Source: a virus | UHGV virus genome: UHGV-2170436 | Reading direction: 5' to 3' (one strand) | Length of the DNA stretch: 35,580 nt | Shown here: positions 14,897 through 35,580 of the stretch, in pieces | Layout of the letters: each line of letters begins with the position of its first letter | Position numbering within the stretch: the first letter of the stretch is position 1 | The notes under the pieces: model-generated | What the model saw: only the letters and a program-made list of their open reading frames with translations | Databases searched by the model: none | Told to the model about the DNA's origin: nothing | Translations under genes and position numbers: made by a program

Positions 14897-14911
14897 TTTG
14901 ATTACTCCAAT

Positions 14912-14940: not shown

Positions 14941-14944
14941 AAAA

Positions 14945-15070: not shown

Positions 15071-15541
15071 TCATCCGGCAGTGAAGATTTCCTGTTTGAT
15101 CGGCTTTCCGTCCACCGCGAAGGTAAACTCTTTGGTTACAACTTCTTCATCGCCACCGTTCATAGCAACTTTAGAAATAAAGCCGTTGAAAGCGGTGCGA
15201 ATACCAGTCTGTTTTGCTGCATCAACATAGTATTCAATCTTAATCTGAATTCGAGTACCGTCTTCGGCAGCTTTAATGAGCTTCTCGTGCACCGCATCGC
15301 CTGGGATGTAGTTAACGGTCAGAGTCAGATCAGGAACGTTCAGTTTCCCTACCAGCTTACGGTTATACTGAGAAGAGAAGGATTTAACTTCTACAGTACC
15401 GCGCTCGATACCAGTTTCAGGAAAACCAGCACACTCTTTAATTTCTTCGTAACCGGAGTGATCGAGAGCGGTGTTAGTGGTATCAGCGTGATAGAACAGA
15501 CTTACCAGACCACCAGTAAAAATATCATTAAATTGAGACAT
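15071..15541 (-). CDS. major tail (tube) protein candidate
   Basis: Position upstream of chaperone pair and tape measure; AAGGGG RBS; ends ...EIFTAG-TGA. Confidence 0.55.
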   Translation of the reverse strand: MSQFNDIFTGGLVSLFYHADTTNTALDHSGYEEIKECAGFPETGIERGTVEVKSFSSQYNRKLVGKLNVPDLTLTVNYIPGDAVHEKLIKAAEDGTRIQIKIEYYVDAAKQTGIRTAFNGFISKVAMNGGDEEVVTKEFTFAVDGKPIKQEIFTAG

Positions 15542-15597
15542 AGAATTACCCCTTAATTAAAATTGTTATTACGGGGGAACTAGTCCCCCGACTTTTA

Positions 15598-19206: not shown

Positions 19207-19286
19207 CTAGAATCACCTCACTATAAAACAGGAATAAGGGAGGCGTTAACCTCCCCGCGTCATGTTTTATTTAGGTAGGAGAATCC

Positions 19287-20120
19287 TTAGTATTCGCCGA
19301 AATCGATCCGGTCAGTCTTAGCCACTGCGCCAATTTCGCTAGGTGTCGGTTTCTCGTTTGTAGAATAGACTTTAATCCATTCAGATTTACCGTTTTCCTG
19401 AATATTTCGGACGCGTAAACGCGGTGCGCCAGAAGTATTACAGGTTAATTGCCATGCGCCATGCTCATTAGCTTGAAGATGAATTAACGATGTATCAGCA
19501 CCATAAGGGTTAGTGCTAGCAGTTCCCTTGTAAGTTACGAAACGGTTTCCTGTCAGAGATTCACTATCAATAGGACCACTGAAAGGATTTACACCAGCAC
19601 CGATACCAAAATCACCCTGACGTAAGATCCGGCCTTCGGTAGCAATACCCCTTGCCAAAATCCCGCCATCTGGTTCAAGTTTAAATTCCAGTGTTACAGC
19701 TTTGTTATCTGCGCCACGGGTTTTGTGACTAGTGACATAAGCGTCATAGATGACATAGTAACCAGTGTTAGCAGCACTATAGCCAGAGTTCACAACATAG
19801 AACATACGGAAGCGTAAAGGTGTTTTATCCTCTACCGCTTTCATCAACATTGCTTGATGTTCATCGTCAAGAACACGGTTTAATGTGAGTGTTGTCGGTT
19901 CCAGTCTACGATAACCAGCAAGTTTCCCCGTAGCGTCCTGATCGTACTCTTCCAGAGTTTCTATCTCTGTGGATTCGGTTAGCGTAGGGAATGCTGCGAT
20001 GTTCTCCATAGAACTAAAGCTAGGATCGAAAAAGTCGACCTGATTGTCTATCTGGTTAGAGATCGACACTTCAACATGTGATCCAGTGAAAATATCTAAG
20101 TTATCTTGTGTAATATTCAT
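19287..20120 (-). CDS. tail protein of uncertain role
   Basis: C-terminal KVYSTNEKPTPSEIGAVAKTDRID resembles an internal segment of the long tail fibre (KMYHEGDKPTPAEIGAYTKGEID). Confidence 0.4.
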   Translation of the reverse strand: MNITQDNLDIFTGSHVEVSISNQIDNQVDFFDPSFSSMENIAAFPTLTESTEIETLEEYDQDATGKLAGYRRLEPTTLTLNRVLDDEHQAMLMKAVEDKTPLRFRMFYVVNSGYSAANTGYYVIYDAYVTSHKTRGADNKAVTLEFKLEPDGGILARGIATEGRILRQGDFGIGAGVNPFSGPIDSESLTGNRFVTYKGTASTNPYGADTSLIHLQANEHGAWQLTCNTSGAPRLRVRNIQENGKSEWIKVYSTNEKPTPSEIGAVAKTDRIDFGEY

Positions 20121-20129
20121 TATTACCCC

Positions 20130-20552
20130 TTAAAAACGCGCTAGATAAGAAAATTTAAGGCTAAGTGTCCCAACGATACCCCCATCACTAGAATCATCGT
20201 CATAATCGGTATTAGAGGCTACTGGAGTGATATCTGAAATAGAGAAGCCCAAATCTTTAAAACGTGGGTTATCCGGCTGAATCTGGATTATCTGGCAAAT
20301 ACCCTCATGGATTTTTGTTTCATGAATCTGAGAATATAATTGCATTTCGATAACGCATTCAGCTTGCATTGCATTACCACCACGGACCCTAGTGTAAGTC
20401 TCATTCATGCCAGTAATCCAACAAACCACGTCATCACTAAAACCTTGCTGAGTTTGTTCTACGTTTAAAGCCAGACCTAAATCTTGTTCGATAATATCTT
20501 GCAAGGCGCGTTTGATTTTCAGTCTAGGCATATTATTAACGGTAGCGAGCAT
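20130..20552 (-). CDS. hypothetical head-tail joining/completion protein
   Basis: Start set at ATG 20552 with AGGGGG RBS; position between capsid and tail genes. Confidence 0.35.
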   Translation of the reverse strand: MLATVNNMPRLKIKRALQDIIEQDLGLALNVEQTQQGFSDDVVCWITGMNETYTRVRGGNAMQAECVIEMQLYSQIHETKIHEGICQIIQIQPDNPRFKDLGFSISDITPVASNTDYDDDSSDGGIVGTLSLKFSYLARF

Positions 20553-20826
20553 GTGTACCCCCTGCCAGAGTAATAAAGCAATCAGTGGTATTATCACCAT
20601 TGCGCTTAACGTATTGAACTTTGAAACGCTGGTTTTCTACAATGACAATATCACCCTGATTTAAGTCTCCCTCACGACAGAATAGAAATTCGGTTTCTGT
20701 CATTACCCCCGATTCGTCGGTAGTAGTAATTTCATGATAAGCACGAATTGATTTACCACCTTCCACCGAAAATACAGGAGCACTCTTAAACATTCTTGAT
20801 AATTGTGATTCTGATAATTTGAACAT
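20536..20826 (-). CDS. hypothetical head-tail connector protein
   Basis: Start set at ATG 20826 (MFKLSESQL...) with AGGGGG RBS; first gene after the capsid terminator. Confidence 0.35.
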   Translation of the reverse strand: MFKLSESQLSRMFKSAPVFSVEGGKSIRAYHEITTTDESGVMTETEFLFCREGDLNQGDIVIVENQRFKVQYVKRNGDNTTDCFITLAGGTHARYR

Positions 20827-20856
20827 AGTTACCCCCTTTATGGAGTATTTACATAC

Positions 20857-20882
20857 AAAAAAGCCCCGCACTAGGCAGGGCT
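20857..20882 (-). terminator. Rho-independent terminator after extended capsid ORF
   Basis: Minus-strand RNA AGCCCUGC-CUAGU-GCGGGGCU followed by UUUUUU; related in sequence to the terminator at 14912-14940. Confidence 0.6.
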
Positions 20883-20887
20883 AATTA

Positions 20888-21016
20888 TCATTCTTTAGGC
20901 TTGCGGCCTCGTTTTGCTGTGGCTTTCGCCGTAACCGTCTGGGATTCTTCTTCCGGTTTAGGAATCAGATTTTCTTCCCCCGAATCGGGGGAAGGTTCAG
21001 AAGGTTCTACAGGAGT
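20888..21016 (-). other. In-frame post-TGA extension of the capsid gene (42 codons; putative readthrough domain)
   Basis: Same frame as 21017..23071; translates TPVEPSEPSPDSGEENLIPKPEEESQTVTAKATAKRGRKPKE, ends at tandem stops TGA-TAA; contains no in-frame ATG/GTG/TTG. Confidence 0.5.
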
Positions 21017-23071
21017 TCAGTCAACTTTTTTCTGAACTACGGTCAGTGCGCTATGGTCCATAACAGCCCAATCCAGATCAGCCCATACACGGAAGTACAG
21101 GTTGCCAGCCGCGCGACCTGTGGTATCGTCGCAATCCAGTTCCAGCGATCCGAAGTCTGCAACAACAAGGGAGCTAAAGTCACCAAACAGCATGGTATCC
21201 TGAGCAACTACACCAGAGCCATAGATCGGACGGTTAACCAGTTTATCGCCTTCTACCAGGAAGCCCGGAACATTAGCTGCTTTGAGTTGCGCTGCCAGTT
21301 CAGCTTTAACAACACCACGGGTAGCAAATGCCAGATCCGCTTCGTTATAACCTTTGTCGGTCAGTTCAGCTACCAGTTTCAGGAACTCGGCATAGGTCCA
21401 ATCAATCTGTTTAACTTTGCCAGCGTCGGTCAGGATCTTAGTCAGACCATCACGAGCGTTAGTGTTAGCAGCATTGGACAGAATCGCTTTTTCCAGAGCG
21501 ATAGCACTGTGTTTCAGCATGTGCTCACCAACGATAGCGCCAATATTGGGCAGTGTGATTGCAGCCTGACGCGTTACAGGAACAATTCCGTTAAAAGTCT
21601 TGAGAGTCATCGGCTGCGCTGCAAACTTAATAGTACCTTCACCAGCGGATTGACCTTCTGCAACAAAACCGAAGTTTTCCAGATTGCTGGAAGTCAGAGA
21701 CGGCAGAGAAACAGGACCAGTTGCGTTAATGGTACGCACACCCAATTTACCCAGAATAGAACGTTCCATGATCATATCAACGAAGCAATCATGGCGGATT
21801 TCTTCACCAACTACTGGTTTCAGAGATTCCATGTTCTGGCTAGCACGCAGAGCGGACGCCGGAATGAATACGGAGTTAGAACGCTGCGCACGACCACGCG
21901 CTGCGGCTTTACGTGCTTCTTCCTGAGAATATTCAGCTTCTGCGCCAGTCAGGGCTTTACCCTCTGCGATTGCACGTACAGCTTTATTAAGATCGAAACG
22001 GGATTCCAGAGTTTTAATGGTATCGGTCATGGTAATTTTTCCTTTAACAAAAGTTTTAGATTCGGTAGTATTTAGTGCGCGTGCTTTTTCTTTAAAATTT
22101 TCAATAGTCACGGCACTATCTTTAATTGCAGCTTCAATCACGTCTTCGGAGATATTTAGATGTTTTCCGATAGCACGAATTTCGGCGGTATCTTCGCGAG
22201 AACGTTCAAACGGTTTTTCTTCGTCTTCAATCTTTTCTTCTTCGACTGGTTCGGATGTATTTTCCGTTTCGTCGTTCTCGTCTGTATCTTTATTTAGTTC
22301 TTCTGTTTCTTCCGGTTCATCTTCGGAACGTTCTTCTTTTTCTTCTGGCGTTACTTCTTGCGGTTCTTCCACATCTTCGCCACTGTCAGCACTATTTCCA
22401 GAATCGGAATCAATTTCTTCATTTTCTTGTTCCTCTTTCTCTTCTTCGGAACGTTTTTCTTCATCTTCCGGTTTAATTTCTTCGACCGGAGTATCTTTAA
22501 TTTCGTCTTCCACTTGTTCACCCTCCAAAACAATCATTTCGTTGTCTGTATTTAGAGAGCGTCCAACACCCGCATTAAATGGATCTGCGGCACACGTTAC
22601 AAGACTGCATTCGAAAGGTTGCCAGCGTGTAACATAATAGATCCCTTTGTTAAAATCGGCTTTGCCATCAAGAACGTTATAACCGACGCTAACTTGTGAA
22701 AGTGTTCCCTCTTTTACCTTCTCAAAGCATTCATTAGCCAGTTGGCCTACTTTGGAGAATTGGACAAGGCAACGACCTACACGGTCTTCGTCAATACGAG
22801 CGGAGCCAGGAACAATCTTGCCGATATGAAGATCCAGATTGTGATTAAACAGAAGACTTGCGTTAGTCTCGTTTAAAACGGATAGATCAACCGCTGATTC
22901 ATCGTGTACGAGAATCTCTTTTAATTCGACTTGCTCGCCGTCCTGATTCATGTAATAACGTGTATAAGGAGCCTCGCTTGAGAAAGCCAATTCAATAATT
23001 CGTTCGTCTTTTTCTTCGATAAAATCAGGGGTATCTACCGCAACACTACGACGGAATTGTTTTGTTGTCAT
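21017..23071 (-). CDS. prohead protease - scaffold - major capsid protein fusion
   Basis: 684 aa: N-terminal ~170 aa protease-like region, highly acidic Glu/Asp-rich linker, C-terminal ~400 aa capsid-like domain; follows the portal gene. Confidence 0.65.
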   Translation of the reverse strand: MTTKQFRRSVAVDTPDFIEEKDERIIELAFSSEAPYTRYYMNQDGEQVELKEILVHDESAVDLSVLNETNASLLFNHNLDLHIGKIVPGSARIDEDRVGRCLVQFSKVGQLANECFEKVKEGTLSQVSVGYNVLDGKADFNKGIYYVTRWQPFECSLVTCAADPFNAGVGRSLNTDNEMIVLEGEQVEDEIKDTPVEEIKPEDEEKRSEEEKEEQENEEIDSDSGNSADSGEDVEEPQEVTPEEKEERSEDEPEETEELNKDTDENDETENTSEPVEEEKIEDEEKPFERSREDTAEIRAIGKHLNISEDVIEAAIKDSAVTIENFKEKARALNTTESKTFVKGKITMTDTIKTLESRFDLNKAVRAIAEGKALTGAEAEYSQEEARKAAARGRAQRSNSVFIPASALRASQNMESLKPVVGEEIRHDCFVDMIMERSILGKLGVRTINATGPVSLPSLTSSNLENFGFVAEGQSAGEGTIKFAAQPMTLKTFNGIVPVTRQAAITLPNIGAIVGEHMLKHSAIALEKAILSNAANTNARDGLTKILTDAGKVKQIDWTYAEFLKLVAELTDKGYNEADLAFATRGVVKAELAAQLKAANVPGFLVEGDKLVNRPIYGSGVVAQDTMLFGDFSSLVVADFGSLELDCDDTTGRAAGNLYFRVWADLDWAVMDHSALTVVQKKVD

Positions 23072-23113
23072 AGATCACCTTGAAAATTATTGGGGGCATT
23101 GCGCCCCGTTGGG

Positions 23114-24637
23114 TTATTCATTTTGAGTATCAGGAGATTTTTCTTTTTCAGTCTCACCCTCACTCACGACGCATGTATTTAGCATGTGTTTTTCTGCCTC
23201 AATTTCTTTAAAGACCTGAGACGGATCTTGACCCATTTCCATAATGACCTGAGCTTTAGACTTCAATCCGCTTTCTATTAACAGAACTTCACTCTGAATA
23301 TCTTTGATCGGTTCAATAGACGTAACGCGAGGTCTAATAATTGTCGTTGCATCCAAAATAGAATCGATCTGCGTCATGCGAACATTGATTTTTGAGTTAA
23401 TTACCGCGTGACGTAAAAACGCCTCAAATAATGGAAGAATAACAGTATCAACTAAGCGATCTTGATGCGTCTTGAAGCGAGCGGATTCAATATTATGACC
23501 GAATTTTGCTGATGAGTAGTTAATAGAACTTGTATCTCCTGTAAGAGCTTGTTTAAAGCTAGACAGACCCATAGAAATAGAAGTCAGCATTGCTTCATTG
23601 AATTTTTCGAAATCATCGCCGCCTTGAGTTGATTGTACCGTTTTAACGTCTTGCCCCGGTTCCAGTATATTGATAGTACCCGGTTCGAAGTCAGTGATCA
23701 TTGTTGGCGGTTGATAGTTTTCCGTGTCATCTTCACCAACATCAAATGAATCTTGATTTTCTTTATCGCTTGTGATAAAGGCCATGCTGCTTGCGTGCAC
23801 GCGCTTACCGATTATTACAGTCTCGCGGAACGCTTCAAGATGAGCTATATCTTTGATTATTGGCAAGAAATCAGTAATACCACGTAATGCGTCGGCTGTA
23901 CCAGGGATAAAGTAATGCAGCACTCTTTCCGCCGGGATTCGTACACGTTCGCCAGTAAAGGACTGAGTAAACAGGTCACGACGCCTAAACCAATATGCAA
24001 CGGGCTTTTCATCTTCATATTCGATGCCAGCGTAAACGACATTACCGTTATCTAAGGTGCGCTGATCTGACCAATCAACACAATCCGCACCATAAATGGA
24101 TACTTGCAGATCCTTACCATCTTCATGGAGTACCAGAAACGCATCACCACCCATCACGCGCTCTTTTTCCATCAACTTTAAGCATTCAAGGAAGTTAATC
24201 TTTCCGATGCGCGAGAATCGTTTCTGAGAGCTAGCCCAACGCCAAAAAGCATTCTCAATAGCGGTGTTAGTGGTTGCGTCCAGCTTTTCCCCTTTCATAA
24301 CGAAGGTTCGAGGCTGTAAGCCAGTACCTACCACGGAATCAATAACGTGTTGGCAATAACGGGAGCCAATAGAAGTGTTTAACGCAAGATAACGGCCTTG
24401 ATTGTATAGACGTGATGCGGACCCCTTAATCGCGCTGTTAATGCTGCCAGTGATGACATTACGCGCCATACTTCCTTCAATGCGGTCGCTTTCAACCAAT
24501 CCCAAAGAGCGTTTATGTAAGTCTTTGGTAAATTCTTCAATCTTGCGATCTACAAATAATTTGCGGTGTTGGCGAATACCGATTTTCTTAACCGGATTCA
24601 CGGGCATATCTTTTTTGCGTTTGAAAAAATTAAACAT
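23114..24637 (-). CDS. portal protein
   Basis: 507 aa, positioned between large terminase and capsid, acidic C-terminus. Confidence 0.7.
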   Translation of the reverse strand: MFNFFKRKKDMPVNPVKKIGIRQHRKLFVDRKIEEFTKDLHKRSLGLVESDRIEGSMARNVITGSINSAIKGSASRLYNQGRYLALNTSIGSRYCQHVIDSVVGTGLQPRTFVMKGEKLDATTNTAIENAFWRWASSQKRFSRIGKINFLECLKLMEKERVMGGDAFLVLHEDGKDLQVSIYGADCVDWSDQRTLDNGNVVYAGIEYEDEKPVAYWFRRRDLFTQSFTGERVRIPAERVLHYFIPGTADALRGITDFLPIIKDIAHLEAFRETVIIGKRVHASSMAFITSDKENQDSFDVGEDDTENYQPPTMITDFEPGTINILEPGQDVKTVQSTQGGDDFEKFNEAMLTSISMGLSSFKQALTGDTSSINYSSAKFGHNIESARFKTHQDRLVDTVILPLFEAFLRHAVINSKINVRMTQIDSILDATTIIRPRVTSIEPIKDIQSEVLLIESGLKSKAQVIMEMGQDPSQVFKEIEAEKHMLNTCVVSEGETEKEKSPDTQNE

Positions 24638-24646
24638 GTTAAATCC

Positions 24647-25144
24647 TTATCGAGTTAAGCGTACTTTAATCGGTGTAATTGGTGAGTAATTGCCAGCCTT
24701 GCGCCGTTCTTGCTGAATGAGTTTTACGAGTTGTTTTTCGTAATCCCTTTTCAGTTGTTGTAAAACCGCAATTGACTCGTAGGTAAACGAATTACCCTTT
24801 ATCGTCATTGCAGATAACGCACTTTCATCATTGGCTAGGCGCGCATAGATGGTATTTTCGATTAAAGCAATCGTTTCGCGCAGATATTCTTTTTTGGATT
24901 GTTTGGCGAATACTGGCAATACAGTTAATTCCTGCATTGATACCAGTTCTTCTTCCAAAGTGGTTACGATGGTATATTTACCCTCGGCAAAATCTAAGGT
25001 TTTAATCTCGTGATTAGCCGGAGTATCATCAACCTGATAAATGATACCTTTACTATTTCCTACCTGAATTGTTACACCCTCTTCATTCGCCAGCGTGATT
25101 TTTTCACCTTTACGAATTACTAAGGGAATTAGTTCTAAACTCAT
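24647..25144 (-). CDS. hypothetical head-morphogenesis protein
   Basis: ORF between large terminase and portal; no motif recognised. Confidence 0.35.
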   Translation of the reverse strand: MSLELIPLVIRKGEKITLANEEGVTIQVGNSKGIIYQVDDTPANHEIKTLDFAEGKYTIVTTLEEELVSMQELTVLPVFAKQSKKEYLRETIALIENTIYARLANDESALSAMTIKGNSFTYESIAVLQQLKRDYEKQLVKLIQQERRKAGNYSPITPIKVRLTR

Positions 25145-25216
25145 AATTACCCCTTATTTAATTGTTATTGGATTAACAATATTTAGGAGTAAGCCGCCCC
25201 GAAGGACGGCGAGTTA

Positions 25217-27121
25217 TTAGAACGATGTTACCCAGCTACGGCCTCTATTTGGGCGTCTGGCGATGTTTTGACGTTGTGGTCGTGTGATTGGCTTAGTTTC
25301 TTCGATTTGCTCGTCAGATTGCGTTTCAGGAGCTTTTACGGGTTCTTCTGGTTCACGGTTCAAACTATCTTTGATGGCTTCGAGTTTTTCCCATGACATT
25401 TTATTGAGTACATGGCGAGAAGCAGCATAGGAATAAGCCAGGCAGTCGAGAGCCTCGTTTCGTTGCTGACCAACTTTTACCCAACGTGTGGTATTACCCT
25501 GCCGTTTCAACTGTTCAGAAAGCAATTGCTCGCAATAGTCATCAGGAACGTCACCAATCTGGAAGACAGTATGAGGATCGCCATCTCTCAAGTTCCGGTT
25601 AATCATTTCACGGATCATCGTCTTAAGGTTGTTTACGCCCAGAATTTTGAGAGTAAAACCGCCCGTTCTTGTGTCCTTAGCCGGAAGGATTGGAGCATCA
25701 GCATTACTTGCGCCTTTAATGGCGCATAGGTTTTGCCACCTAGTGCAAAAACGGTAGATCACGTTTGTAGCTCGTCCGTTCGATGAGTCCACGAAAGCAG
25801 ATAGCATCGGGATTCGTTCACCGGATCGGGTATAGAATTTCGCTTTCAGGAAGTTATAAAGCTGGTCATATGCTGGTGATTCGTGGCGTTCGCAGTTCAC
25901 ATCATAGAATGATCGGTGATCAACTACGCATATCCCCTTACGAGAGATACCCAGCAAGGTAGATTCCAGACGGTCTTTTTGCTGGTCAACTCCACCTACC
26001 AGAGCCAGTACATCATCAGGAATATTGTCTAGGCTAATATCAGTTTTCAGCGTTTCCAGTTCGTCGGCTGTGCGATCTTCGTTAAGATCATCGAAGGTTT
26101 CACCGAGGACTGTATTGTAGAACGTTGCTAGTGACATATTCGCGTAGCTATCAGCAAAGTCCACCACACACGCACGGATAGAACTAAACGGAGACATAAG
26201 GCGGTTAGCATGAAAACCGATTACTTCCGCATTTGGTTCTGTAGCAATCCATTCACCTTGAGCAACAGCACGTAGGCGATCCCCTTCTGTCCAATCAGTT
26301 TCACATGACGGGCAACGATAAACGGCAGTATCTGGATTCGGCAGTGATTTACAGTTAATCGTATGCCAATCAAAGAAAACTCTACTCCATTCCATTACGT
26401 GCTTGTGTCCGCAATGCTGGCAAACGACATGATATTTTCTCTTATCCGAGAGTTCCCATTGTTGGTTAATCGCCCCATCACGAGCGGTTGGAGTGGAAGC
26501 AATTACGATCCTTGCATCTTCCCCGAAAGTGGTTGCGCGTTGTTCCGCTAGCTGGATCGGGTTCCCTTCGTCTGACTCATCAGCCGCATCAACTTCATCA
26601 AGAATAATCAAAGGGAGTGTTTTACCGCGAAGATGTGACGGACTATTCAACGACATGAAATACATAAACGATCCGTTACGAAGCTGAATAATCGATGAGT
26701 TGTTAACGGCATTGCGATCTGATTTGTCGGTGATCATCGCCTTTAATTCTGGTGTTGCCTCTAATACTGGCTTCACCTTACCAGCGATCCAGCTATTCAA
26801 CTCGCGGACATTCGATTGCAACACCCCGATATTAGTAGGGTTACTCGCGATCCGATGGAAGATAATTCCGTTAAGAATCATGGTCTTACCCAACTGTGCC
26901 GAACATTTAAACACAATTTTTCTACGGTCTTCGGTGATCGCGTCCATCATTCCACGTTGGAAGGGATGCAATTTAATTAGCGATCCGGCTTTAACACCAT
27001 CGGTCGCAACTACATTAGCCTCTACCCATTCGCTAGGTTTCATGGTTTTAGGTGGACGAATTGCAGCAGAGATATTTTTGAGAATCTTTTTTAATTTTGC
27101 CTTATTAGAAATCAGTTTCAT
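25217..27121 (-). CDS. terminase large subunit (lambda gpA-like)
   Basis: Walker A CSAQLGKT, Walker B LPLIILDEVD, Cys-rich nuclease region; GAGGGT RBS before ATG at 27121. Confidence 0.85.
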   Translation of the reverse strand: MKLISNKAKLKKILKNISAAIRPPKTMKPSEWVEANVVATDGVKAGSLIKLHPFQRGMMDAITEDRRKIVFKCSAQLGKTMILNGIIFHRIASNPTNIGVLQSNVRELNSWIAGKVKPVLEATPELKAMITDKSDRNAVNNSSIIQLRNGSFMYFMSLNSPSHLRGKTLPLIILDEVDAADESDEGNPIQLAEQRATTFGEDARIVIASTPTARDGAINQQWELSDKRKYHVVCQHCGHKHVMEWSRVFFDWHTINCKSLPNPDTAVYRCPSCETDWTEGDRLRAVAQGEWIATEPNAEVIGFHANRLMSPFSSIRACVVDFADSYANMSLATFYNTVLGETFDDLNEDRTADELETLKTDISLDNIPDDVLALVGGVDQQKDRLESTLLGISRKGICVVDHRSFYDVNCERHESPAYDQLYNFLKAKFYTRSGERIPMLSAFVDSSNGRATNVIYRFCTRWQNLCAIKGASNADAPILPAKDTRTGGFTLKILGVNNLKTMIREMINRNLRDGDPHTVFQIGDVPDDYCEQLLSEQLKRQGNTTRWVKVGQQRNEALDCLAYSYAASRHVLNKMSWEKLEAIKDSLNREPEEPVKAPETQSDEQIEETKPITRPQRQNIARRPNRGRSWVTSF

Positions 27122-27207
27122 GTAATTACCCTCATTACGAAATATGAAGGTATTTATTAAATTGTTGATATTTTGATAAATACGGTATTAAGATTTAAGG
27201 AGGGTGT

Positions 27208-27801
27208 ATGCTAATTAATCAGCAAGAAAGAGATGAATTAGCCTTGTCTTGTACCGATCATGAATATCGTTTGCCAGTAAAACATAAGCACTTAAAGACC
27301 GATTACACTACATCCGGTTTTAGTCGCGAAGAAGCGAAAGAGATTTTAATCGAGTTGTATCGCGATCATGGGTATACCGATATTCACAACTTCTTTAAGA
27401 AGCATAGAACATCACATACAGAGTTTCGGAGAGTCCGAGATTGGTTTGATTTTGATATCAAGCGTTATTATCGCATTGATGACGGTCCTATCTATCGGTT
27501 GCAGTGGAAGTCGATCCGAGAAGTGTTGAAACAGAAGAGATTGAATCACGCTATTACACGCTATCGTAACGAGGCTTTCAAGAAAGGCTATGGTGATACA
27601 AGGGAACTATTCGTTGAACTCGCTAACGTGAAGTACAGCCACTATTACAACGATCCTAAATCCTTCTTTGAAGTGCTTCGCAAGGTTGATATAAGTCGGG
27701 GTACATACTATTCACGGTTGAAGAAGTACGGGATTAAGGCAGAGTTCTTTATGTCGGTTGACGATGGAGAACTTTTTCCGATAAAATGTAAGTCACTCTA
27801 A
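27208..27801 (+). CDS. DNA-binding protein with duplicated resolvase-type HTH-like modules
   Basis: Two internal segments ending in a recognition-helix-like motif (ISRGTYYSRLKKYGIK), paralogous to 27834..28067 and 31103..31285; AAGGAGGG RBS. Confidence 0.45.
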   Translation: MLINQQERDELALSCTDHEYRLPVKHKHLKTDYTTSGFSREEAKEILIELYRDHGYTDIHNFFKKHRTSHTEFRRVRDWFDFDIKRYYRIDDGPIYRLQWKSIREVLKQKRLNHAITRYRNEAFKKGYGDTRELFVELANVKYSHYYNDPKSFFEVLRKVDISRGTYYSRLKKYGIKAEFFMSVDDGELFPIKCKSL

Positions 27802-27833
27802 ATAAAAGTGAACATTCACTTTAATTTGGAGAA

Positions 27834-28067
27834 ATGACTATGACTACTAAAGCTACTCGCGGTCGTCCTGCCCGTTTTAACGCTGAACAAATGGCTGATA
27901 TTGCCTACGCTTATTATACAGCGGATCGTGGTAAGGAAGCGAAAGAACAGATTCTTAGTGAACATGGGATTTCAATTGCCCAATTCTATAAGAATATGAA
28001 GAAGTTAGACATTAAATTCTATGTTCAGATCGGTGATGGTCAGATCGTAGAAGCAACAGGTTTTTGA
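27834..28067 (+). CDS. small HTH DNA-binding protein (excisionase/RDF or regulator candidate)
   Basis: TRGRPARF...GISIAQFYKNMKKLDIK resembles resolvase-type HTH; 77 aa. Confidence 0.45.
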   Translation: MTMTTKATRGRPARFNAEQMADIAYAYYTADRGKEAKEQILSEHGISIAQFYKNMKKLDIKFYVQIGDGQIVEATGF

Positions 28068-28082
28068 GTTTTGATTCTCTTT

Positions 28083-28106
28083 GCCACTCTTCGGAGTGGC
28101 TTTTTT
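28083..28106 (+). terminator. Rho-independent terminator
   Basis: gccactc-ttcg-gagtggc followed by tttttt. Confidence 0.7.
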
Positions 28107-28215
28107 GTATCTATAGGGTTGTCCAAAACGCCATCGGCGAGTTGGTGGAAGATGGCGCGAAAAGTCGCGTGATGTAGGTATGAAAAAGCCCCGCACGAGG
28201 CGAGGCTAAAAATTA

Positions 28216-29031
28216 TTACAGTCCGAAGACTTCCAGTGATCCAACATTCTGGCGGAGACGTTCAGCCGCTTTATTTTGAATCAGAATAGTGTTGTTCGGC
28301 TTAGGAAGATTCAGAGTTGCTTTTTGTTCTTCTTCCAGAACACCCAATTCAACCAGCACCGGAAGCACATCAACAGTAAACTCAAGCTGGTAGTGAGCAT
28401 TCATGCGGCAGAAAGACAGAGAAGAGTCATTAGCAACATACCCACACGGCTTGTTATTTTCATCATAGACGCGCTCAATGTATCCAGCAGTACGTAAGGC
28501 CGTCAGTGCTTCTTTAACCTTCGTAGCGCCCTTTTTAGCGCCTAACAGACGTGTCATTGAATGGCTGTCTACAGACTTACGAACATGAAGTTCAATCAGC
28601 TTTTTATTTTCACGAGTTTTCTTTAACGCCAGTTCGATCCAGTCGGTTTCTTCAAAGTCTGCATACGGGTTAACGGCTAAACGTTCCTGACGCAGTTTTT
28701 CATTTTCTTCTTTCAGTCGTTTCCATTCCTGAATAACGATCATTCGACGCTTAACATCGTAACCAGTGACAAGAGTCAGCGTCATTTCTTCGTCAAGGTG
28801 ATATTCGGTTTGTTCACGTCCACACTGATCAAGATAGGTGCGCTCAAAACTGAGCACATCTAATTCCAGAGCATCGAGCATGGATTTAATATCACGTTTA
28901 ACGTTTTTATGCTCTTTTCCGGTAAATTCAGCGATCTGACGAGAAGACATGGTCAGCGGTTTGGTGTTATCAACAACCAGAGACACGGAAGCAGGTTTAA
29001 TAGCAGTATTCATAGTAGTAACAGTATTCAT
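28216..29031 (-). CDS. Rha-family phage regulatory protein / antirepressor-like
   Basis: N-terminal SSRQIAEFTGKEHKNVKRDIKSMLD matches the Rha-type signature (..IAE.FGKRH.NVLRDI..L). Confidence 0.6.
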   Translation of the reverse strand: MNTVTTMNTAIKPASVSLVVDNTKPLTMSSRQIAEFTGKEHKNVKRDIKSMLDALELDVLSFERTYLDQCGREQTEYHLDEEMTLTLVTGYDVKRRMIVIQEWKRLKEENEKLRQERLAVNPYADFEETDWIELALKKTRENKKLIELHVRKSVDSHSMTRLLGAKKGATKVKEALTALRTAGYIERVYDENNKPCGYVANDSSLSFCRMNAHYQLEFTVDVLPVLVELGVLEEEQKATLNLPKPNNTILIQNKAAERLRQNVGSLEVFGL

Positions 29032-29122
29032 AGTAAAAATTCCCCTTAAACGGTTTAGTGATTTGGTCCTCCTAGTTCCGGCAGCATCACCGGAACAATT
29101 TTATTTATAAGAAGTTTTTATC

Positions 29123-29269
29123 TCATTTAGATTCAGCAATCGCGCGATCAATTTCTTCTTGAATGCGACGCTGGCGTTCATGGAAGTCAACCATTGAGAA
29201 ATTCAGGTTTGGGGTCCACGGTTTGCGGTTCGGGGTTTTACGTCCATCAATTTTCTTAGTAGTGTTCAT
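29123..29269 (-). CDS. small basic protein (48 aa)
   Basis: ATG at 29269 with GAGGA RBS; MNTTKKIDGRKTPNRKPW...; immediately upstream of the Rha-like gene. Confidence 0.35.
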   Translation of the reverse strand: MNTTKKIDGRKTPNRKPWTPNLNFSMVDFHERQRRIQEEIDRAIAESK

Positions 29270-29327
29270 AATTAACATCCTCTTTACAAATCTAGGTCAA
29301 ATAGGATCAAAGTTGTCAAGTGCGATA

Positions 29328-29356
29328 ATCATAAAAAAGTCAGAAATTTTTGTCAA
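29328..29356 (-). promoter_or_regulatory. sigma70-type promoter (TTGACA - 17 bp - TATGAT) with overlapping inverted repeat
   Basis: Minus-strand TTGACA at 29356-29351 and TATGAT at 29333-29328; -35 lies in the palindrome ttgtcaa-N7-ttgacaa (29350-29370). Confidence 0.55.
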
Positions 29357-29392
29357 TGCCCCCTTGACAAGACGCCAAGGGGTTGACCTAAC

Positions 29393-29860
29393 TTACAGCA
29401 TATCTAAGCCTTCGTCGTAACCGTAGAAGCCATTCTGAGAAGAAAAACAGATTGGTGCGTAGTCGTCGTCATCTTCGTCTTGTTCATCTTCTTCTGGGGC
29501 TTCCTGAGCGGTTTCTTTGCCGTAGTTAAACATTGCTTCATCCAGTTCATAGACAGTAACGAAGCTACCCAGGTCAATGTCACCGGAACGGACTTCAAAC
29601 GGAAGATCATCACGAACAATAATTGCTGGTAGATCCTGGTACTTTAAGCGTTCTTCATCGGTGAAGACGTTAACAACAATGGTCGGCTTCTTATTACGGT
29701 AAAACGCATACCATGCACTAGAGAAATGGGATTCATCAGAGTTGAAAAGGATGTTATAACCACGTTCACGGAACATCTTCATTAACTTGTCATTGTGGAA
29801 GCTATCAGAATCCAGACCCAGAAGGATAAAAGGAGTAGTGGTAGTCATCTTGTGGTTCAT
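29393..29860 (-). CDS. hypothetical protein with strongly acidic C-terminal tail
   Basis: ...EAPEEDEQDEDDDDYAPICF; transcribed divergently from the early control region. Confidence 0.45.
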   Translation of the reverse strand: MNHKMTTTTPFILLGLDSDSFHNDKLMKMFRERGYNILFNSDESHFSSAWYAFYRNKKPTIVVNVFTDEERLKYQDLPAIIVRDDLPFEVRSGDIDLGSFVTVYELDEAMFNYGKETAQEAPEEDEQDEDDDDYAPICFSSQNGFYGYDEGLDML

Positions 29861-30060
29861 AGTGGAAATTCTCTAAAAGAAAGTGAATCAATCTAATATT
29901 ATTTATAAAGAGAAAATTCTTGTTATTATGAAAGGTGATTGTATTCAGTCGGGCAAAGCCCTCCTTCATAGATTTTGAATAAATCATCATCAAAACGAAG
30001 AAGTATCTTTAGAATATAAGAATCTTTCTTTTGGAGAAATAATAATCAGGAAGCAATTTG

Positions 30061-30089
30061 GCAACCGAAGGTTGCAATCCCGAAGGGAT
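30061..30089 (+). repeat. Two adjacent GAA-triloop hairpins
   Basis: gcaacc-gaa-ggttgc (30061-30075) and atccc-gaa-gggat (30077-30089). Confidence 0.4.
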
Positions 30090-30436
30090 AACCAATACCT
30101 TTCTAGAAAGTGATTGTTACTCACTTCGTTCGTTTACTAGAATCAGTTAGTAACTAGTATTAAATCCCTTTCTGAGAAAATCCTTTCAAAAGCGAGTGAA
30201 CGCCGTAGGTGTGAACGTGAGCGAAGCGAACTATCCAATCCCTTTCGAATCCTGCTTGCAGGTCTTAGAAGGTGTTGATGGGCGCTTCGCGCACGGCTAC
30301 GCCGTATTCTTTTTGCGAGATCTTTCTTGAACGTAGTGAGAGAAAACGAGCAAAAAGGAGAACGTTAGTTCGAATTTTATATTCTATGGTCTGTGTGGTG
30401 AAATGTCTTTCAAGATCATACACTTATGAGATTGAA

Positions 30437-30534
30437 GTGTAGGGTTAGTGTAGGTGTGTAGGTGTTATAGTGTAGGTTTACTGGCTAGTGTAGTGTAGGC
30501 CAATCCCTTTAAAGCGTAGGTTTGTAGTGTAGGT
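30437..30534 (+). repeat. Iteron-like direct repeat array (GTGTAGG core, at least 6 exact copies plus variants)
   Basis: GTGTAGG at 30437, 30448, 30456, 30470, 30493, 30527; variants at 30488 and 30514; four copies of the 10-mer TAGTGTAGGT spaced about 22-34 bp apart. Confidence 0.7.
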
Positions 30535-30730
30535 TTTTCATCAAAAATTTTGATAGAAAATTCTTGTATATTATTTAACCAGAAAATCACCAAAAACCGC
30601 TGTAAATGCATGATTTAAAAAGAATCATCAAAAGGTCGCCGTGCTATAATAGGTTATAAAGGTTGATAATCGTTATCCGCCATTTTCACACAAAAATTTT
30701 GATAGTCATTTCTCGCTTAGATCAAGTGTA

Positions 30731-30759
30731 TTGACAACTGTCAAGGATTATTTTATACT
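30731..30759 (+). promoter_or_regulatory. Near-consensus sigma70 promoter (TTGACA - 17 bp - TATACT) with operator-like palindrome
   Basis: TTGACA 30731-30736, 17-nt spacer, TATACT 30754-30759; -35 is part of the near-palindrome TTGACAACTGTCAA. Confidence 0.65.
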
Positions 30760-31102
30760 TTTTCTCGTTGGTAGGGGTTGAAATTTTCGAAACAATCCAC
30801 ATATTGATGATACGCAAGATTTTTTCGTGTATAAATACATGCATGAAAATGATTGTTCACTTCTGAAAATCCCCTGATTCACTGTTAATTCATACAGCAC
30901 TGGCTAAACATACAGTGCTTATTCGATTGAATAATGTACGAATTGATTAATTATTAATCTTCTCTTTAGCAATTCGTGCTCCCACTGATCGGATATACAG
31001 TGGTTTTACAGGGTTTTTCGAAAAACATTTTATAAATAGAATTGTTCAGAGCGAAAAGCTCTTTTTTAAGAAATCATTATTCCAGATTTAGGAGGATATA
31101 AG

Positions 31103-31285
31103 ATGGCACGACCTGTTAAGTTCACTCGTGAAATCGTTTTAGAAATGGCAAAGCGTTATTTTGAACTGACACCTGATGTAGTGATGGGTGAATGGTTTAA
31201 AGGTGAAGGTATTGATCAATCAACCTTCCACAAACTCTTAAAGAAGTATGACATTAAAGTAAAGATTACCGCCGAGGTCTGGTAA
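31103..31285 (+). CDS. small HTH DNA-binding protein (paralog of 27834..28067)
   Basis: MARPVKFTREIV...GIDQSTFHKLLKKYDIK; GGAGG RBS. Confidence 0.5.
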   Translation: MARPVKFTREIVLEMAKRYFELTPDVVMGEWFKGEGIDQSTFHKLLKKYDIKVKITAEVW

Positions 31286-31328
31286 TAACCTTTCACTGAG
31301 AATTATATGATGGCTTTAAAAATAAAAA

Positions 31329-31357
31329 AGCCTCCCTGTTGGCGCAAGGAGGCTTTT
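31329..31357 (+). terminator. Rho-independent terminator
   Basis: agcctcc-N12-ggaggct followed by tttt. Confidence 0.65.
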
Positions 31358-31401
31358 GATATGAACAATTAAACTAACACAGAGCATTCAGGAGTATTTA
31401 T

Positions 31402-32397
31402 ATGAAAAATTCTAAGCGCATTACCTTCAACATGTTTATTAAATCCAACGGCAAACTGAACATCACTGTCATGGAAGGTAAAGCAAGCAAACAAGACAAA
31501 TCCTTTGAAGTAGTATCAGGTAAGACTCTGACCGAAATGCGTCAAAATGCTGGCATCAAAGACGGTGCTGAATGGCAGATCACCAACCGTTTCGACAAAC
31601 GTCACGTTAAACCTACACTGGTAGAAGGTGAATCCGTTTATTGCTTCGCTCGTGCTGTTAAAGCTGATGAAACTTACTATCTGGCTGTTGTTAAAACGGC
31701 TTCCGGCTTCCGTGCTGTAATGCATCACAAGAGCAAACGTAACGAATACGGCGTAGAGACCCAGGAAGTCGCAAAACGCTTCCGTACTGTTGCTACCGAA
31801 TCCACTGTAAAGGATGTTTCTGGTACTGTTAACACCGCTAAAGGCGGTTCCTTCTACAACCACGCATTACAGGTTACTTCCTCCTTCTTCTGCAAAAAAG
31901 AAGCACAGAAAGAAGTTTCTCCGGTAGTAGTTGAAGAAGTTAAAGAAGAAGTTGCAGTGGTTGAATATTCCGAAGTTGAAGCACTGAAAGCACGCATCGC
32001 TGAACTGGAAGCTGAAAACGCATCTCTGAAAGCTGAACTGGCAGCACAGGAAACCACTTTCGAAGTAGCAGCGGTTGAAGTTGAAGCAGTTGAAGAAAAA
32101 TCCATTGATGAAGAACTGGAAGAACTCCTTAACTATCGCTGGGGTGTTGTTGCAGAAGTAGAACAAGAAGTTGCTCCGGTAGTTGTTCCGGTTGAAGTTG
32201 AAGAAGAATCCGCACCTGTTACTAACTTTGAATCCCTGCGCAATAACTTTATGGCTAAATTCAAAACCACTTGGGAAGATACCGAAGAAGAACAAGAAGA
32301 GATTGAAGTAAACGAAGACGAGATCCGCGAAGCACAGATGGCACTGCATGACGCTATCTACGACACCAACTACAGCGCCTACGCATACGCAGCTTAA
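31402..32397 (+). CDS. hypothetical early protein with acidic, Val/Glu-rich coiled-coil C-terminal half
   Basis: AGGAG RBS; 331 aa; no motif recognised. Confidence 0.45.
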   Translation: MKNSKRITFNMFIKSNGKLNITVMEGKASKQDKSFEVVSGKTLTEMRQNAGIKDGAEWQITNRFDKRHVKPTLVEGESVYCFARAVKADETYYLAVVKTASGFRAVMHHKSKRNEYGVETQEVAKRFRTVATESTVKDVSGTVNTAKGGSFYNHALQVTSSFFCKKEAQKEVSPVVVEEVKEEVAVVEYSEVEALKARIAELEAENASLKAELAAQETTFEVAAVEVEAVEEKSIDEELEELLNYRWGVVAEVEQEVAPVVVPVEVEEESAPVTNFESLRNNFMAKFKTTWEDTEEEQEEIEVNEDEIREAQMALHDAIYDTNYSAYAYAA

Positions 32398-32412
32398 TAG
32401 AGAGGTGAATTT

Positions 32413-32655
32413 ATGATGAATCAAAACAAAGAATTTCTGGGTAATCTGATGTTAGAAATTACCAAAATGAAAGAAAGAATGGTAGCGATGGAATCAGAGA
32501 TTAAAACACTTAAAGCTGATAATAAGGCGTTGAGAAAGTCCTTAAAGCTGATTGATGAGACTAATGCGGTTATGATGGATCATGTATTCCCTGAGTGGCG
32601 AAATGAAACTAAACCTACACAACATAAGAAACTTACACTTCGAATTGTTGCATAA
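32413..32655 (+). CDS. hypothetical coiled-coil protein
   Basis: GAGGTGA RBS; 80 aa. Confidence 0.4.
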   Translation: MMNQNKEFLGNLMLEITKMKERMVAMESEIKTLKADNKALRKSLKLIDETNAVMMDHVFPEWRNETKPTQHKKLTLRIVA

Positions 32656-32925
32656 AAAAAGGGACTTCGAAGAGTCCCTAGTAAGTTTAGGTTAGGTTTG
32701 CACAACAAAGATGAGGTTATAATGAACATAATGCCACATTATTCTTTAAAGCCAGAAAAATAACCGCCCCGAAGGGCGGGAGGATTAACACTCAATCTAT
32801 ACTTGTTATGTTTTTATGTTGTATGATCACTGACTATGAAAACACTGTTTTAATGGCTTTTAATCGGGAATCCTCAAAGAAGATCCCCTATTAATAACCA
32901 TAAGGAGAAAAGGCAGATTACACTA

Positions 32926-33099
32926 TTATTTAGTATCCTTTTTACAGCAACTAAAAAGAATAAACAAAAAGAAGCATACCCAGCCGTAAGGCGTACCGAT
33001 TAGAAATTTGAAAAACACCACCAGCGATATAAAAATCAATTTAATGCCAGCGACGATAGTCAAAAACAGCAGAGTAGCAAAGTAGACAAAAAGATCCAT
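32926..33099 (-). CDS. small hydrophobic membrane protein (57 aa)
   Basis: ATG at 33099 with AGAGGA RBS; MDLFVYFATLLFLTIVAGIKLIFISLVVFFKFLIG...; below ORF-track cutoff. Confidence 0.35.
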   Translation of the reverse strand: MDLFVYFATLLFLTIVAGIKLIFISLVVFFKFLIGTPYGWVCFFLFILFSCCKKDTK

Positions 33100-33350
33100 A
33101 GATAATCCTCTTTGAAAACGACCATCATCTATAGTTCAATTCATCGATTTAATTAATGATACTTGAAAGCGTTACACAAAGTAGAAATGCCAATATGTGC
33201 CAGTGAATATACGATAGTTAATCCTACAGCCAGATAAATCAAAAATTCAACCATAGGTAAATCCTCAAATAAGAAAAAGGTTAGCGGGGGATGTTCTCCC
33301 CCGTAGACGTTGACCATCAACATCTTTCATACATTTATTTATAACGCGTT

Positions 33351-33905
33351 TTAAGACACATCAAATTCATCGTCTTCTTCTGGTTCTTGTTCCGGTTCAT
33401 CCATTAATGGTAATTCTTCTTCCTCGTCTTCTCCCAAATCAGCATTTTCGAACAAGTCCCCTACTTCATTTAAACGACGCTCGATGATCTCCCTTAGCTT
33501 ATTCTTCAATGTTTTCTGGTCATTGGCAGATTCGAGAATTTCTAGGGCATCGATCGTACAAATCTGCAAAATAGTCTGTTTCACTTTCCCGCAGTATTCC
33601 GCTAGTTCCTGTTCTACATAACCGACAGGAATCAGGAGATTCATTTTTTCCTGGTTCTCTCGTTCGGCTGCATCTGCCAAAGCACGTTCACGGCGTAATT
33701 TCTCTACATCGATTTGTTCTTTGATAGAAGTTTGTTTAAGCGGGTTGATAATATTTTTCAAGACCCATTCTGTTCCTTCTTTGGCTGGCACGCGGCGGGT
33801 ATTGGTGTTAAATGGCAATCCCCTTTCTATCCATCGCTTAGCGCCACCATTCAATGAATAGCCGTATAAACGGGAAATTTCTGTAAGGGTTAATTCTTCT
33901 TTCAT
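33351..33905 (-). CDS. terminase small subunit (lambda Nu1-like)
   Basis: N-terminal winged-HTH LTLTEISRLYGYSLNGGAKRWIERGLPF and following EKLRRERALADAAE parallel Nu1 (KKQLADIFGASIRTIQNWQEQGMPV; EKLRREVEELRQASE) as I recall it; acidic C-terminus. Confidence 0.55.
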   Translation of the reverse strand: MKEELTLTEISRLYGYSLNGGAKRWIERGLPFNTNTRRVPAKEGTEWVLKNIINPLKQTSIKEQIDVEKLRRERALADAAERENQEKMNLLIPVGYVEQELAEYCGKVKQTILQICTIDALEILESANDQKTLKNKLREIIERRLNEVGDLFENADLGEDEEEELPLMDEPEQEPEEDDEFDVS

Positions 33906-34263
33906 TGGTTATCCTCCATTAAATTTGCGTAATTTTATTTATTGGTTTTACGCACAATCTAAGCGCCTAAATCGCATTCTAACGAAGGGAAAGATCCAGT
34001 AATGGTAAGGGCTAGGAAGTGGGTTAATAGTCGCGTAGCGACCGCGCTAGGACTGCACTGATCACGTTTTAAAATCTCACACGCGTATCAAATACCGGGG
34101 TGCCGAAAACTCCCTTTATCTCATCCGTGGAACAGTACCTTTTTAATTTGTCAAGCATTAATTTCTTAATTTAATTACTAAATCTCATCCCAATAATTGA
34201 AAAAATATCAAAAATCAATAAAGTAAGCATCTAAAAGTCAGTCCATACCAAAAGAGGTATAAA

Positions 34264-35058
34264 ATGAAAAACATTATCGCTGCTATCGTGCTTTCTGCTA
34301 CTGCTTTCGGTGCTGATGCTGCGTCCTTTGATTGCACTAAGGCTACTACCAAATCAGAGAAGTTTATTTGTGCTAATGAGTCAATCTCCGCACTGGATTC
34401 TAAACTTCATGAAGTATATGTTAAGGCTGTTAAGATTGACCCGTCGCTTAAACAAGAGCAACGCAACTGGAATAAAACTGTTCGTGATACAATGATCAAT
34501 ATCGGGCAGATTCAGCCACTGGAGGCTGTATACAACGCTCAAATCCAAAACTTGATGAACGTATTATCTAAAGAAGAAACCGCGTCAGAAAGCGATTCAG
34601 AGACTTCTGCGAAGGTTGAAGAAGAACAACCGAAGGCAGTAGAAACTCTAAAAACCAAAGAGAAACAAGTTGTTCTGGAAAAGTCCCCAAATAGCAACTT
34701 CGTATATATTTGTCCGAAAGTAGTTAAAATAACCACAATTGACGGACTGAGTGTAGAAGATCGTGATATAGTGAAAGAAAACACAAAAATTGTAATCGAT
34801 AAAAACAAAGACAAGGCAAAACTTCTAATTTCTGGAACGATGCACCCCCCAGTTGTAGTGGAAATGAATATTGACGCTGATGGATTCATGTCAAAAACTA
34901 CTAAAACTGGTGTAGAGTTATACGCACAACACGGAAAAACATATTCCGGTGATAAGATGGTTGATGATGTAAGAACACTGGACTATCATCATATTTATGT
35001 TGACAACCGTACCGGAAAGGAAATCGAATGGAAATATTCTTGTGTAGAGAAAAAATGA
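34264..35058 (+). CDS. secreted DUF1311 (LprI-like N-terminal domain) protein, phage moron candidate
   Basis: Signal peptide MKNIIAAIVLSATAFGADA; motif FDCTKATTKSEKFICANESISALDSKL..Y matches the DUF1311 Cys-x-Ala...Glu...Cys...Leu-Asp pattern. Confidence 0.55.
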   Translation: MKNIIAAIVLSATAFGADAASFDCTKATTKSEKFICANESISALDSKLHEVYVKAVKIDPSLKQEQRNWNKTVRDTMINIGQIQPLEAVYNAQIQNLMNVLSKEETASESDSETSAKVEEEQPKAVETLKTKEKQVVLEKSPNSNFVYICPKVVKITTIDGLSVEDRDIVKENTKIVIDKNKDKAKLLISGTMHPPVVVEMNIDADGFMSKTTKTGVELYAQHGKTYSGDKMVDDVRTLDYHHIYVDNRTGKEIEWKYSCVEKK

Positions 35059-35256
35059 TAGAGGCGACATAATACAATCAGAGATAGTTAAACGCCCGAA
35101 TATTACTAGTTAGTTCCTAAGTTCATTTCTTATGGTGTTAATTGCGACTCAGTTGCTATAGAATTCTTCTAATTCATTGATTCTATAGCCCTGTCCTTGT
35201 GATGGGGCTTTTTATTGCAAAATTTTTAGTTATTTTGGGTTGACTACATTCGGGTT

Positions 35257-35559
35257 GCCAATTCGCCTGGCTAACTCTTGCTGAGTGATTTCTGACTGTA
35301 AAAAAGCATTTAACAGCAATACCTTAGAGGCGACGCTCAAAGGTACTTCAATAAAGTGATCATGACTATTTAATGGCGAAGGTAACGGGATAAGCTCGTT
35401 ATCTTCAAAATAAAAATCAAATGCGGTCAGTAAAGCATCTTTTGCCGCTTCCATCGCTTCAGCGACAGTTTCGCCCTGCGTCAACGCTTCAGGGATATCC
35501 ACAAAAGAAACCATATAACCGCCTTCCGGCGCGGGTGTAAGAGTGACGGGATAACGCAT
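35257..35559 (-). pseudogene. hicB: hicB antitoxin gene, 3'-truncated (HTH domain lost)
   Basis: MRYPVTLTPAPEGGYMVSFVDIPEALTQGETVAEAMEAAKDAL fits the HicB N-terminal signature; the HTH begins at ...ITQQELARRIG and is replaced by NPNVVNPK-stop encoded by AT-rich DNA. Confidence 0.65.
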
Positions 35560-35580
35560 AATTTCGACTGTCTCTCGCAT

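Follow-up and report, generated by a model that had tools for sequence, protein, structure and literature searches.

The DNA analysed here (35,580 nucleotides of the virus genome UHGV-2170436, referred to below as the window) is best read as a prophage of about 35.3 kb whose right junction lies at 35255/35256 inside E. coli hicB. On this reading, for which confidence is put at roughly 0.9, the prophage was inserted at a TT dinucleotide by a serine recombinase, and the truncated HicB that it leaves behind should no longer repress. The argument rests on the exact position of the junction in hicB, on the second hicB fragment at the other end of the element, on the structure of the attachment sites, on the recombinase gene near the left end, and on the recurrence of the same break point in other E. 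coli genomes.

Truncation of hicB at the right prophage end

The open reading frame at 35230..35580 (minus strand; 116 aa) corresponds to the 5' part of E. coli hicB and ends in QQELARRIGNPNVVNPK followed by a stop codon. It was aligned with hicB of K-12 MG1655 (L003), in which the hicAB locus is uninterrupted. Between 35580 and 35255 every base of the window agrees with K-12; phage-specific sequence begins at 35254, and from there leftwards the DNA is unrelated to K-12 hicB. In K-12 numbering, the common part stops at HicB residue 101 of 138 (...RRIG), beyond which the K-12 protein reads KPKQEITRLFNLHHATKIDAVQLAAKALGKELSLVMV; in the window, the last 37 residues are replaced by eight phage-encoded codons (NPNVVNPK), with the stop codon at 35230-35232. 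The hicB 5' portion (35255..35580, minus strand) thus comprises K-12 residues 1-101 preceded by a 7-codon upstream extension (MRETVEI), and ends in the common TT. This portion is the host side (B' arm) of a junction that is named attR here in the window orientation only.

The sequence-only reading of this DNA had proposed that an element boundary interrupts hicB, with a switch at 35256/35257 to a foreign NPNVVNPK-stop tail, and had suggested alignment with an uninterrupted hicAB locus. The tail was read correctly and the alignment with K-12 defined the exact junction, with identity ending at 35255. The position of the switch was right to within 2 bp; the first divergent base is 35254, and the TT at 35255-35256 is common to both junctions.

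Domain searches located HicB_lk_antitox (PF15919) at residues 10-74 of the window protein and also in K-12 HicB. HTH_3 was found at residues 88-134 of full-length K-12 HicB and was absent from the window protein. The break after residue 101 spares the first HTH-motif helix. The recognition helix is lost, together with the remaining helices and the dimerising β-strand of the HTH domain, as part of the last 37 residues; the complete C-terminal HTH (Xre-type) DNA-binding and dimerisation domain is absent. The alignment and the Pfam assignments agree in this with the earlier description of a frame that is intact through the N-terminal domain and the first HTH helix, and of an HTH domain cut short by the element boundary. 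The common part of HicB is 100% identical to the E. coli HicB of PDB entries 6U0I and 6HPB, and PGAP annotates the truncated gene as a pseudogene. The junction is far beyond chance, as 35 complete genomes and several IMG/VR contigs break at this very point.

Left junction and attachment sites

Position 1 of the window is the ATG of the first prophage gene, and the left junction was read in related genomes (E275a and L002) rather than in the window's own. E275a carries a near-identical element (99.7% over window 1-3000), in which a fragment annotated as 'hicB, missing N-terminus' stands directly left of that ATG and is followed by ydcR, as in K-12. In genomes with the same element, the hicB 3' remnant (37 codons) lies 42 bp beyond the left edge of the window, as read in L002; the expected second junction, with the rest of hicB, is therefore present just outside the window. 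With these 42 bp of phage DNA added, the element comes to about 35.3 kb.

The uninterrupted site, attB, lies at hicB codons 101-102 and reads ...CTCCTGTTTAGGT-TT-GCCAATTCGCC... (short form AGGT[TT]GCC, left flank TTTAGGT). The left junction, attL, reads ...CTCCTGTTTAGGT-TT-CCCTAATATCATG... (AGGT[TT]CCC) and the right junction in the window, attR, reads ...GACTACATTCGGG-TT-GCCAATTCGCC... (CGGG[TT]GCC). The attP site reconstructed from them is ...TTATTTTGGGTTGACTACATTCGGG-TT-CCCTAATATCATGTACCCATGATAA..., with the predicted core GACTACATTCGGG-TT-CCCTAATATCATG. For this attP type, the TT dinucleotide at 35255..35256 contains the sole bases common to attL, attR and attB, and sharing of TT alone is the signature of the 2-bp staggered cut of a serine recombinase. 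No target duplication accompanies the 2-bp crossover of attP and attB, as is usual for large serine recombinases.

The phage half-site of attR (25 bp, 35230..35254, TTATTTTGGGTTGACTACATTCGGG), the minus strand of which encodes NPNVVNPK and the stop codon, is kept among related lysogens. It is complementary at 17/25 positions to the other arm, taken from attL in L002. This dyad symmetry about the TT equals the maximum in the window and is reached by 4 of 35,528 positions (background mean 6.3, sd 2.2, maximum 17); attB scores 7/25. The reconstructed attP is accordingly a site of about 50 bp with imperfect dyad symmetry, in keeping with the large serine recombinase class.

When the two hicB halves were joined in silico (left side of attL with right side of attR), the protein obtained was identical to K-12 HicB, and the rejoined gene differed from that of K-12 by three synonymous changes in 438 nt. 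Nothing is duplicated or lost, so that precise excision would rebuild hicB; reconstitution of the target gene upon excision, which marks gene-intervening prophages, was in this way reproduced in silico. The exact reconstructed attP string was absent from IMG/VR, and no free or circular phage genome carrying it was found in that collection.

The large serine recombinase

A large serine recombinase is encoded at 1501..3180 (plus strand; 559 aa when counted from the ATG), with the left prophage end some 1.5 kb away. The mechanically called reading frame starts at a TTG at 1486, which sets the length at 559-564 aa. Resolvase, Recombinase and Zn_ribbon_recom domains were all detected above the curated Pfam cut-offs: the catalytic domain (PF00239) at residues 11-158 (E = 2e-14), PF07508 at residues 203-291 and PF13408 at residues 315-373. 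Both the size and the C-terminal recombinase and zinc-ribbon domains fall within what defines the large serine recombinases (about 450-700 aa). The N-terminus, MKTKLYSYIRFSSMRQ, contains an R-x-S motif, and YIRFSSMRQ within it is the presumed catalytic-serine motif.

Annotation of the near-identical prophage in E275a shows no recombinase besides this serine recombinase. From its domains and its place in the element, the protein encoded at 1501-3180 is the predicted integrase that made the hicB junction, and the domain assignments bear out the sequence-only reading, which had taken the element for a large serine recombinase prophage inserted in a coding gene. A tyrosine integrase or a transposon was considered as the agent and rejected, the serine recombinase alone being present and the target showing no duplication beyond the 2-bp core.

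In tblastn searches of sequenced phages, the best matches of the recombinase were in the lambdoid E. coli phages Perceval and 4A7 (YbcK-like) and in Burkholderia phage Bcep176, with at most about 30% identity over 80-84% of the protein. A recombinase of this class performs attP x attB recombination by itself, and excision needs a directionality factor; none was identified in the element. Separately, a 184-aa protein encoded at 33351-33905 (minus strand), 6 kb from the large terminase gene, has an HTH-like N-terminal region and an acidic tail. It weakly resembles a small-terminase family (phrog_57, E = 4e-12), and could be a small terminase or an Xis-like directionality factor.

Prophage genes and relatives

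The prophage body (1..35254) comprises the element without its leftmost 42 bp, as judged from PHROGs, from the PGAP annotation of the E275a copy and from the left junction in L002. Genes were assigned for an endolysin (3715-4068), a tail-tip protein (5721-9497), a tape measure protein (11227-13656), a long-tail-fibre protein of 1,202 aa (15598-19206, minus strand), a protease-major-capsid fusion (21017-23071), a portal protein (23114-24637), a large terminase (25217-27121) and a Rha/Ant-like regulator (28216-29031); a major tail protein was also recognised in the prophage body through PHROGs. With packaging, head, tail and lysis genes and an integrase enclosed by att junctions, the element has the make-up of a tailed temperate phage. 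In the early region (27-34 kb), neither a repressor gene nor replication genes could be recognised.

The product of the last prophage gene (34264..35058, plus strand) has an LprI (lysozyme inhibitor) domain, according to Pfam (LprI), phrog_14799 and its PGAP name. The gene belongs to a variable cassette, related elements having 256-, 259- or 264-aa versions of the gene or unrelated small genes, and it looks like an accessory (moron) gene. At the left end, a 40-nt direct repeat (268-307 and 710-749; 83% identity) was noted, with one copy after each of the first two small genes and a GC-rich hairpin in each copy; terminators present twice, or a cassette boundary that was duplicated, are possible explanations.

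When 25 kb of the element was compared with sequenced phages by megablast, a tail-fibre segment was the sole match, and the large terminase is at most 43% identical (amino acids) to that of any sequenced phage. These comparisons point to a prophage lineage without a close sequenced phage relative. The 27 IMG/VR contigs that carry the recombinase are all of the prophage type, with the recombinase 1-1.6 kb from one contig end.

Within the long-tail-fibre distal-subunit gene (15598-19206, minus strand), the stretch at 15905-18327 is 74-86% identical in nucleotides, over 1.2-1.8 kb, to gene 37 of virulent RB49-like T-even phages, which suggests exchange of a receptor-binding module between temperate and virulent phages. 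In the E275a copy (L046), an IS2 element lies inside the tail-fibre gene and IS421 is also present (17365-18593 and 34798-35910); the copy in HCP5S3_I4 has IS5 and IS1 near the recombinase gene. The window's copy is without these insertions.

The inverted repeat and terminator next to attR

A 9-bp inverted repeat had been reported inside the element, starting at 35157. The repeat is present; it is in fact a perfect 10-bp repeat, GCTATAGAAT (35155-35164) and ATTCTATAGC (35180-35189) separated by 15 nt, and the 9-bp form begins at 35156. The repeat is 65 bp away from the core and folds as a hairpin (RNA fold) next to an intrinsic terminator. A count of perfect repeats in the window (9 bp or longer, gap of 3-30 bp) gave 11 distinct ones (20 seeds, versus about 5 in Markov-1 random sequence), and the 10-bp repeat is no rarer than chance. 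No significant further copies of the 10-mer were found, 16 of 100 shuffles doing as well.

The left arm of the repeat is missing in L031, L032 and L035, all of which use the same att site. Likeness between element variants resumes at about 35170-35176, inside the repeat, and database matches of the junction query begin at query position 71 or 77. The terminator abuts the repeat (35187..35216, plus strand; stem-loop 35187-35209, with a 9-bp stem, a 5-nt loop and a T-run) and was recognised by a terminator scan and by RNA folding; the stem-loop and the 25-bp attP arm are conserved in divergent lysogens. It is predicted to end transcription of the LprI-domain gene before an antisense run into hicB. 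An attP of about 50 bp suffices for large serine recombinases, which do without accessory sites; a repeat 65 bp away from the core would therefore not be expected to contribute to recombination. The repeat was accordingly rejected as an att accessory site or operator, such repeats being common in the window and the left arm missing in relatives with the same site; it has no demonstrable link to the att site. The likeliest reading is an incidental feature or a minor additional hairpin before the terminator.

Distribution in E. coli

Complete E. coli genomes (n = 5,426) were searched with the junction. The hicB part of the query was matched in 5,323 and the phage-hicB junction was carried by 35 (about 0.6%). 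The lysogens came from human, pig, cattle, chicken, goose and river water sources and included O55:H7 and O6:H16 strains; they keep the gene context rlhA-yncJ-hicA-hicB and have several protein alleles of the rlhA neighbour.

The phage side of the junction varies and the break point is constant. At the left junction the variants TT|CCCTAAT, TT|GCCTAAT and TT|CACTAAT all break at the same TT. At the right junction, a first attR type (GACTACATTCGGG|TT) gives the tail NPNVVNPK and a second (ACAACATTTAGGT|TT) gives KPKCCKPQ. Several attP and cargo variants at one TT argue for repeated independent integrations by a phage family rather than for a single inherited scar.

hicA alleles in lysogens

The window ends at the hicB start codon, and hicA would lie about 46 bp beyond 35580. 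In related lysogens, hicA is adjacent to hicB and was labelled intact in 27 of 35 and frameshifted in the other 8; an intact gene was confirmed in five divergent lysogens. An extra nonsense codon was noted in hicA of L040.

The null allele, seen in L001, L038, L040, L043 and L045, is a 22-bp frameshift deletion that leaves a 44-aa product. It occurs in two SNP subtypes (199 and 606 genomes), about 805 of the 5,426 complete genomes in all (14.8%). A sizeable share of E. coli thus carries a naturally inactivated chromosomal HicA toxin, irrespective of the prophage. The allele was found in 22.9% of lysogens versus 14.8% of all genomes (OR 1.7, p = 0.23, uncorrected for phylogeny). An apparent enrichment of about 8-fold in lysogens (8/35 vs 191/5,391, p = 3e-5) was discarded as an artefact of counting one of the two SNP subtypes. 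Since the null allele is not significantly enriched in lysogens, there is no sign that truncation of hicB selects for loss of the toxin.

The closest match to the last 1,851 nt of the window is L043 (2 mismatches), which carries the 22-bp deletion. The toxin is thus probably already dead in the window's strain, and the question of what the truncated HicB does may not arise there.

Proposed mechanism and consequences for hicAB

Integration would proceed as follows. Recombinase dimers would bind attP and attB and cut both at the TT with 2-nt staggers, and the half-sites would rotate and then be religated. The insertion splits hicB into residues 1-101 with eight phage codons and a stop at one end of the element and the 37-codon 3' remnant at the other. 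The inverted repeat would play no part in this.

In HicB, the N-terminal domain covers the active site of HicA and so neutralises the toxin, and the C-terminal HTH of E. coli HicB binds the operator and dimerises via the β-strand that follows the HTH motif (PMC11594946). Of the two hicAB promoters, HicB represses one, and the transcript of that one makes the antitoxin only (PMC11594946). The truncated HicB would keep the domain that masks the HicA active site and may still bind HicA one to one; with the recognition helix and the dimerising β-strand gone, the HicB-controlled promoter would no longer be repressed. Loss of autorepression with neutralisation retained is plausible from the domain content of the truncated protein, and is compatible both with the published domain roles (PMC11594946) and with the intact hicA of 27/35 lysogens. 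Because the HicB-controlled transcript makes only antitoxin, derepression would favour an excess of antitoxin, and such an excess would explain why lysogens tolerate an intact hicA. Half an HTH domain might also destabilise the truncated HicB, and tolerance of intact hicA could simply reflect low hicA expression.

Alternative explanations

That the 116-aa protein is a native short variant of HicB, with no insertion at all, has practically no chance of being right. Its reading frame is intact with its own stop codon, and the exact 116-aa sequence is widespread (1,225 blocks of the assembly collection). Yet phage DNA with the LprI-domain gene lies directly downstream in 10 of the 10 places read in detail, the missing hicB 3' fragment stands at the other end of the element, the joined halves rebuild K-12 HicB exactly, and the sister attP variant gives a different tail, KPKCCKPQ. 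No uninterrupted hicB was found to end in NPNVVNPK, the ending by which the sequence-only reading would have recognised a native variant; the tail occurs only at the phage junction. A fixed defective remnant, with the junction as a vertically inherited scar at a site that is out of use, is a better founded proposal and still an unlikely one. It would account for the absence from IMG/VR of a free phage genome or intact attP, for the want of a close cultured relative, for the failure to recognise repressor or replication genes, and for the decay of some copies by IS2 and IS421 (E275a) or IS5 and IS1 (HCP5S3_I4). However, the window's copy has intact long reading frames for the recombinase and for tail, head, packaging and lysis functions, the lysogens belong to different chromosomal backgrounds (rlhA alleles, O55:H7, O6:H16, varied hosts), and several attP and cargo variants have entered at the same TT.

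Two further proposals concern function within an integrated prophage. The inverted repeat at 35155-35189 could be an accessory site for the recombinase or a directionality factor, or an operator, and its perfect 10-bp arms, its distance of 65 bp from the core and its hairpin fold beside the terminator would suit such a role. This is very improbable given how common such repeats are in the window, the lack of significant repetition of the motif elsewhere, the relatives that lack the left arm at the same att site, and the modest requirements of large serine recombinases at attP. The insertion into hicB could also be adaptive for phage or host, as a reversible switch or by disarming HicAB as a defence, rather than a neutral landing site. 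Exact restoration of hicB upon excision and the dedication of an entire phage family to the hicB site speak for adaptation, and HicA toxin domains have been linked to anti-phage defence in a published proposal (PMC10865869). Adaptation is nonetheless improbable: there is no sign of regulated excision, about 15% of E. coli already have a null hicA allele that shows no association with lysogeny, which suggests weak selection on the locus, and large serine recombinase phages often land in non-essential genes with no known benefit. The most elaborate form of the idea is that an E. coli phage family targets hicB such that insertion yields a toxin-binding, non-repressing HicB and excision restores autoregulation, a reversible toxin-antitoxin and defence switch; this would be a long shot. 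If it were true, a toxin-antitoxin system proposed for phage defence would be rewired by, or coupled to, the state of the prophage, in a manner comparable to comK or spsM, at a toxin-antitoxin and defence locus in an enterobacterium. The reading preferred here remains insertion of the prophage into hicB by its serine recombinase, with a truncated HicB left at the right end.

Significance and comparison with known systems

The system supplies a natural attP/attB pair with its large serine recombinase from E. coli, defined at base-pair resolution, as raw material for genome-engineering toolkits, and makes hicB a further prophage attachment site of E. coli. The 'partial hicB' pseudogenes annotated in about 0.6% of complete E. 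coli genomes are accounted for by the prophage. Lysogens with an N-domain-only antitoxin beside an intact toxin gene also constitute a natural experiment on the HicB domains. Searches of open-access full texts yielded no description of hicB as an attachment site in E. coli, and absence there is not proof of novelty.

The mechanism is the standard one of a large serine recombinase prophage in a host gene, and no new mechanism is involved. Gene-interrupting phages of this kind include A118-type phages in Listeria comK, Bxb1 in groEL1 and phiC31 in a pirin-like gene. A further such prophage is SPβ, which with its recombinase SprA interrupts spsM of B. subtilis (PMC4191935, PMC5499854). The hicB prophage resembles SPβ, A118, Bxb1 and phiC31 in having a phage-encoded large serine recombinase beside one prophage end, a short crossover core in coding sequence with gene fragments at both prophage ends, and a target gene that conservative excision would reconstitute. 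It differs from them in its host, E. coli, in its target, an antitoxin gene, and in being without known developmental or regulated excision. The recombinases of Perceval, 4A7 and Bcep176 share the three-domain architecture of the window recombinase, whereas their identity to it is about 30% and their phage backbones are unrelated to the element. Compared with HicAB of K-12 (PDB 6HPB), the HicB encoded in the window is identical over the first 101 residues, the whole HicA-neutralising N-terminal domain included, and has its last 37 residues exchanged for eight encoded by the phage.
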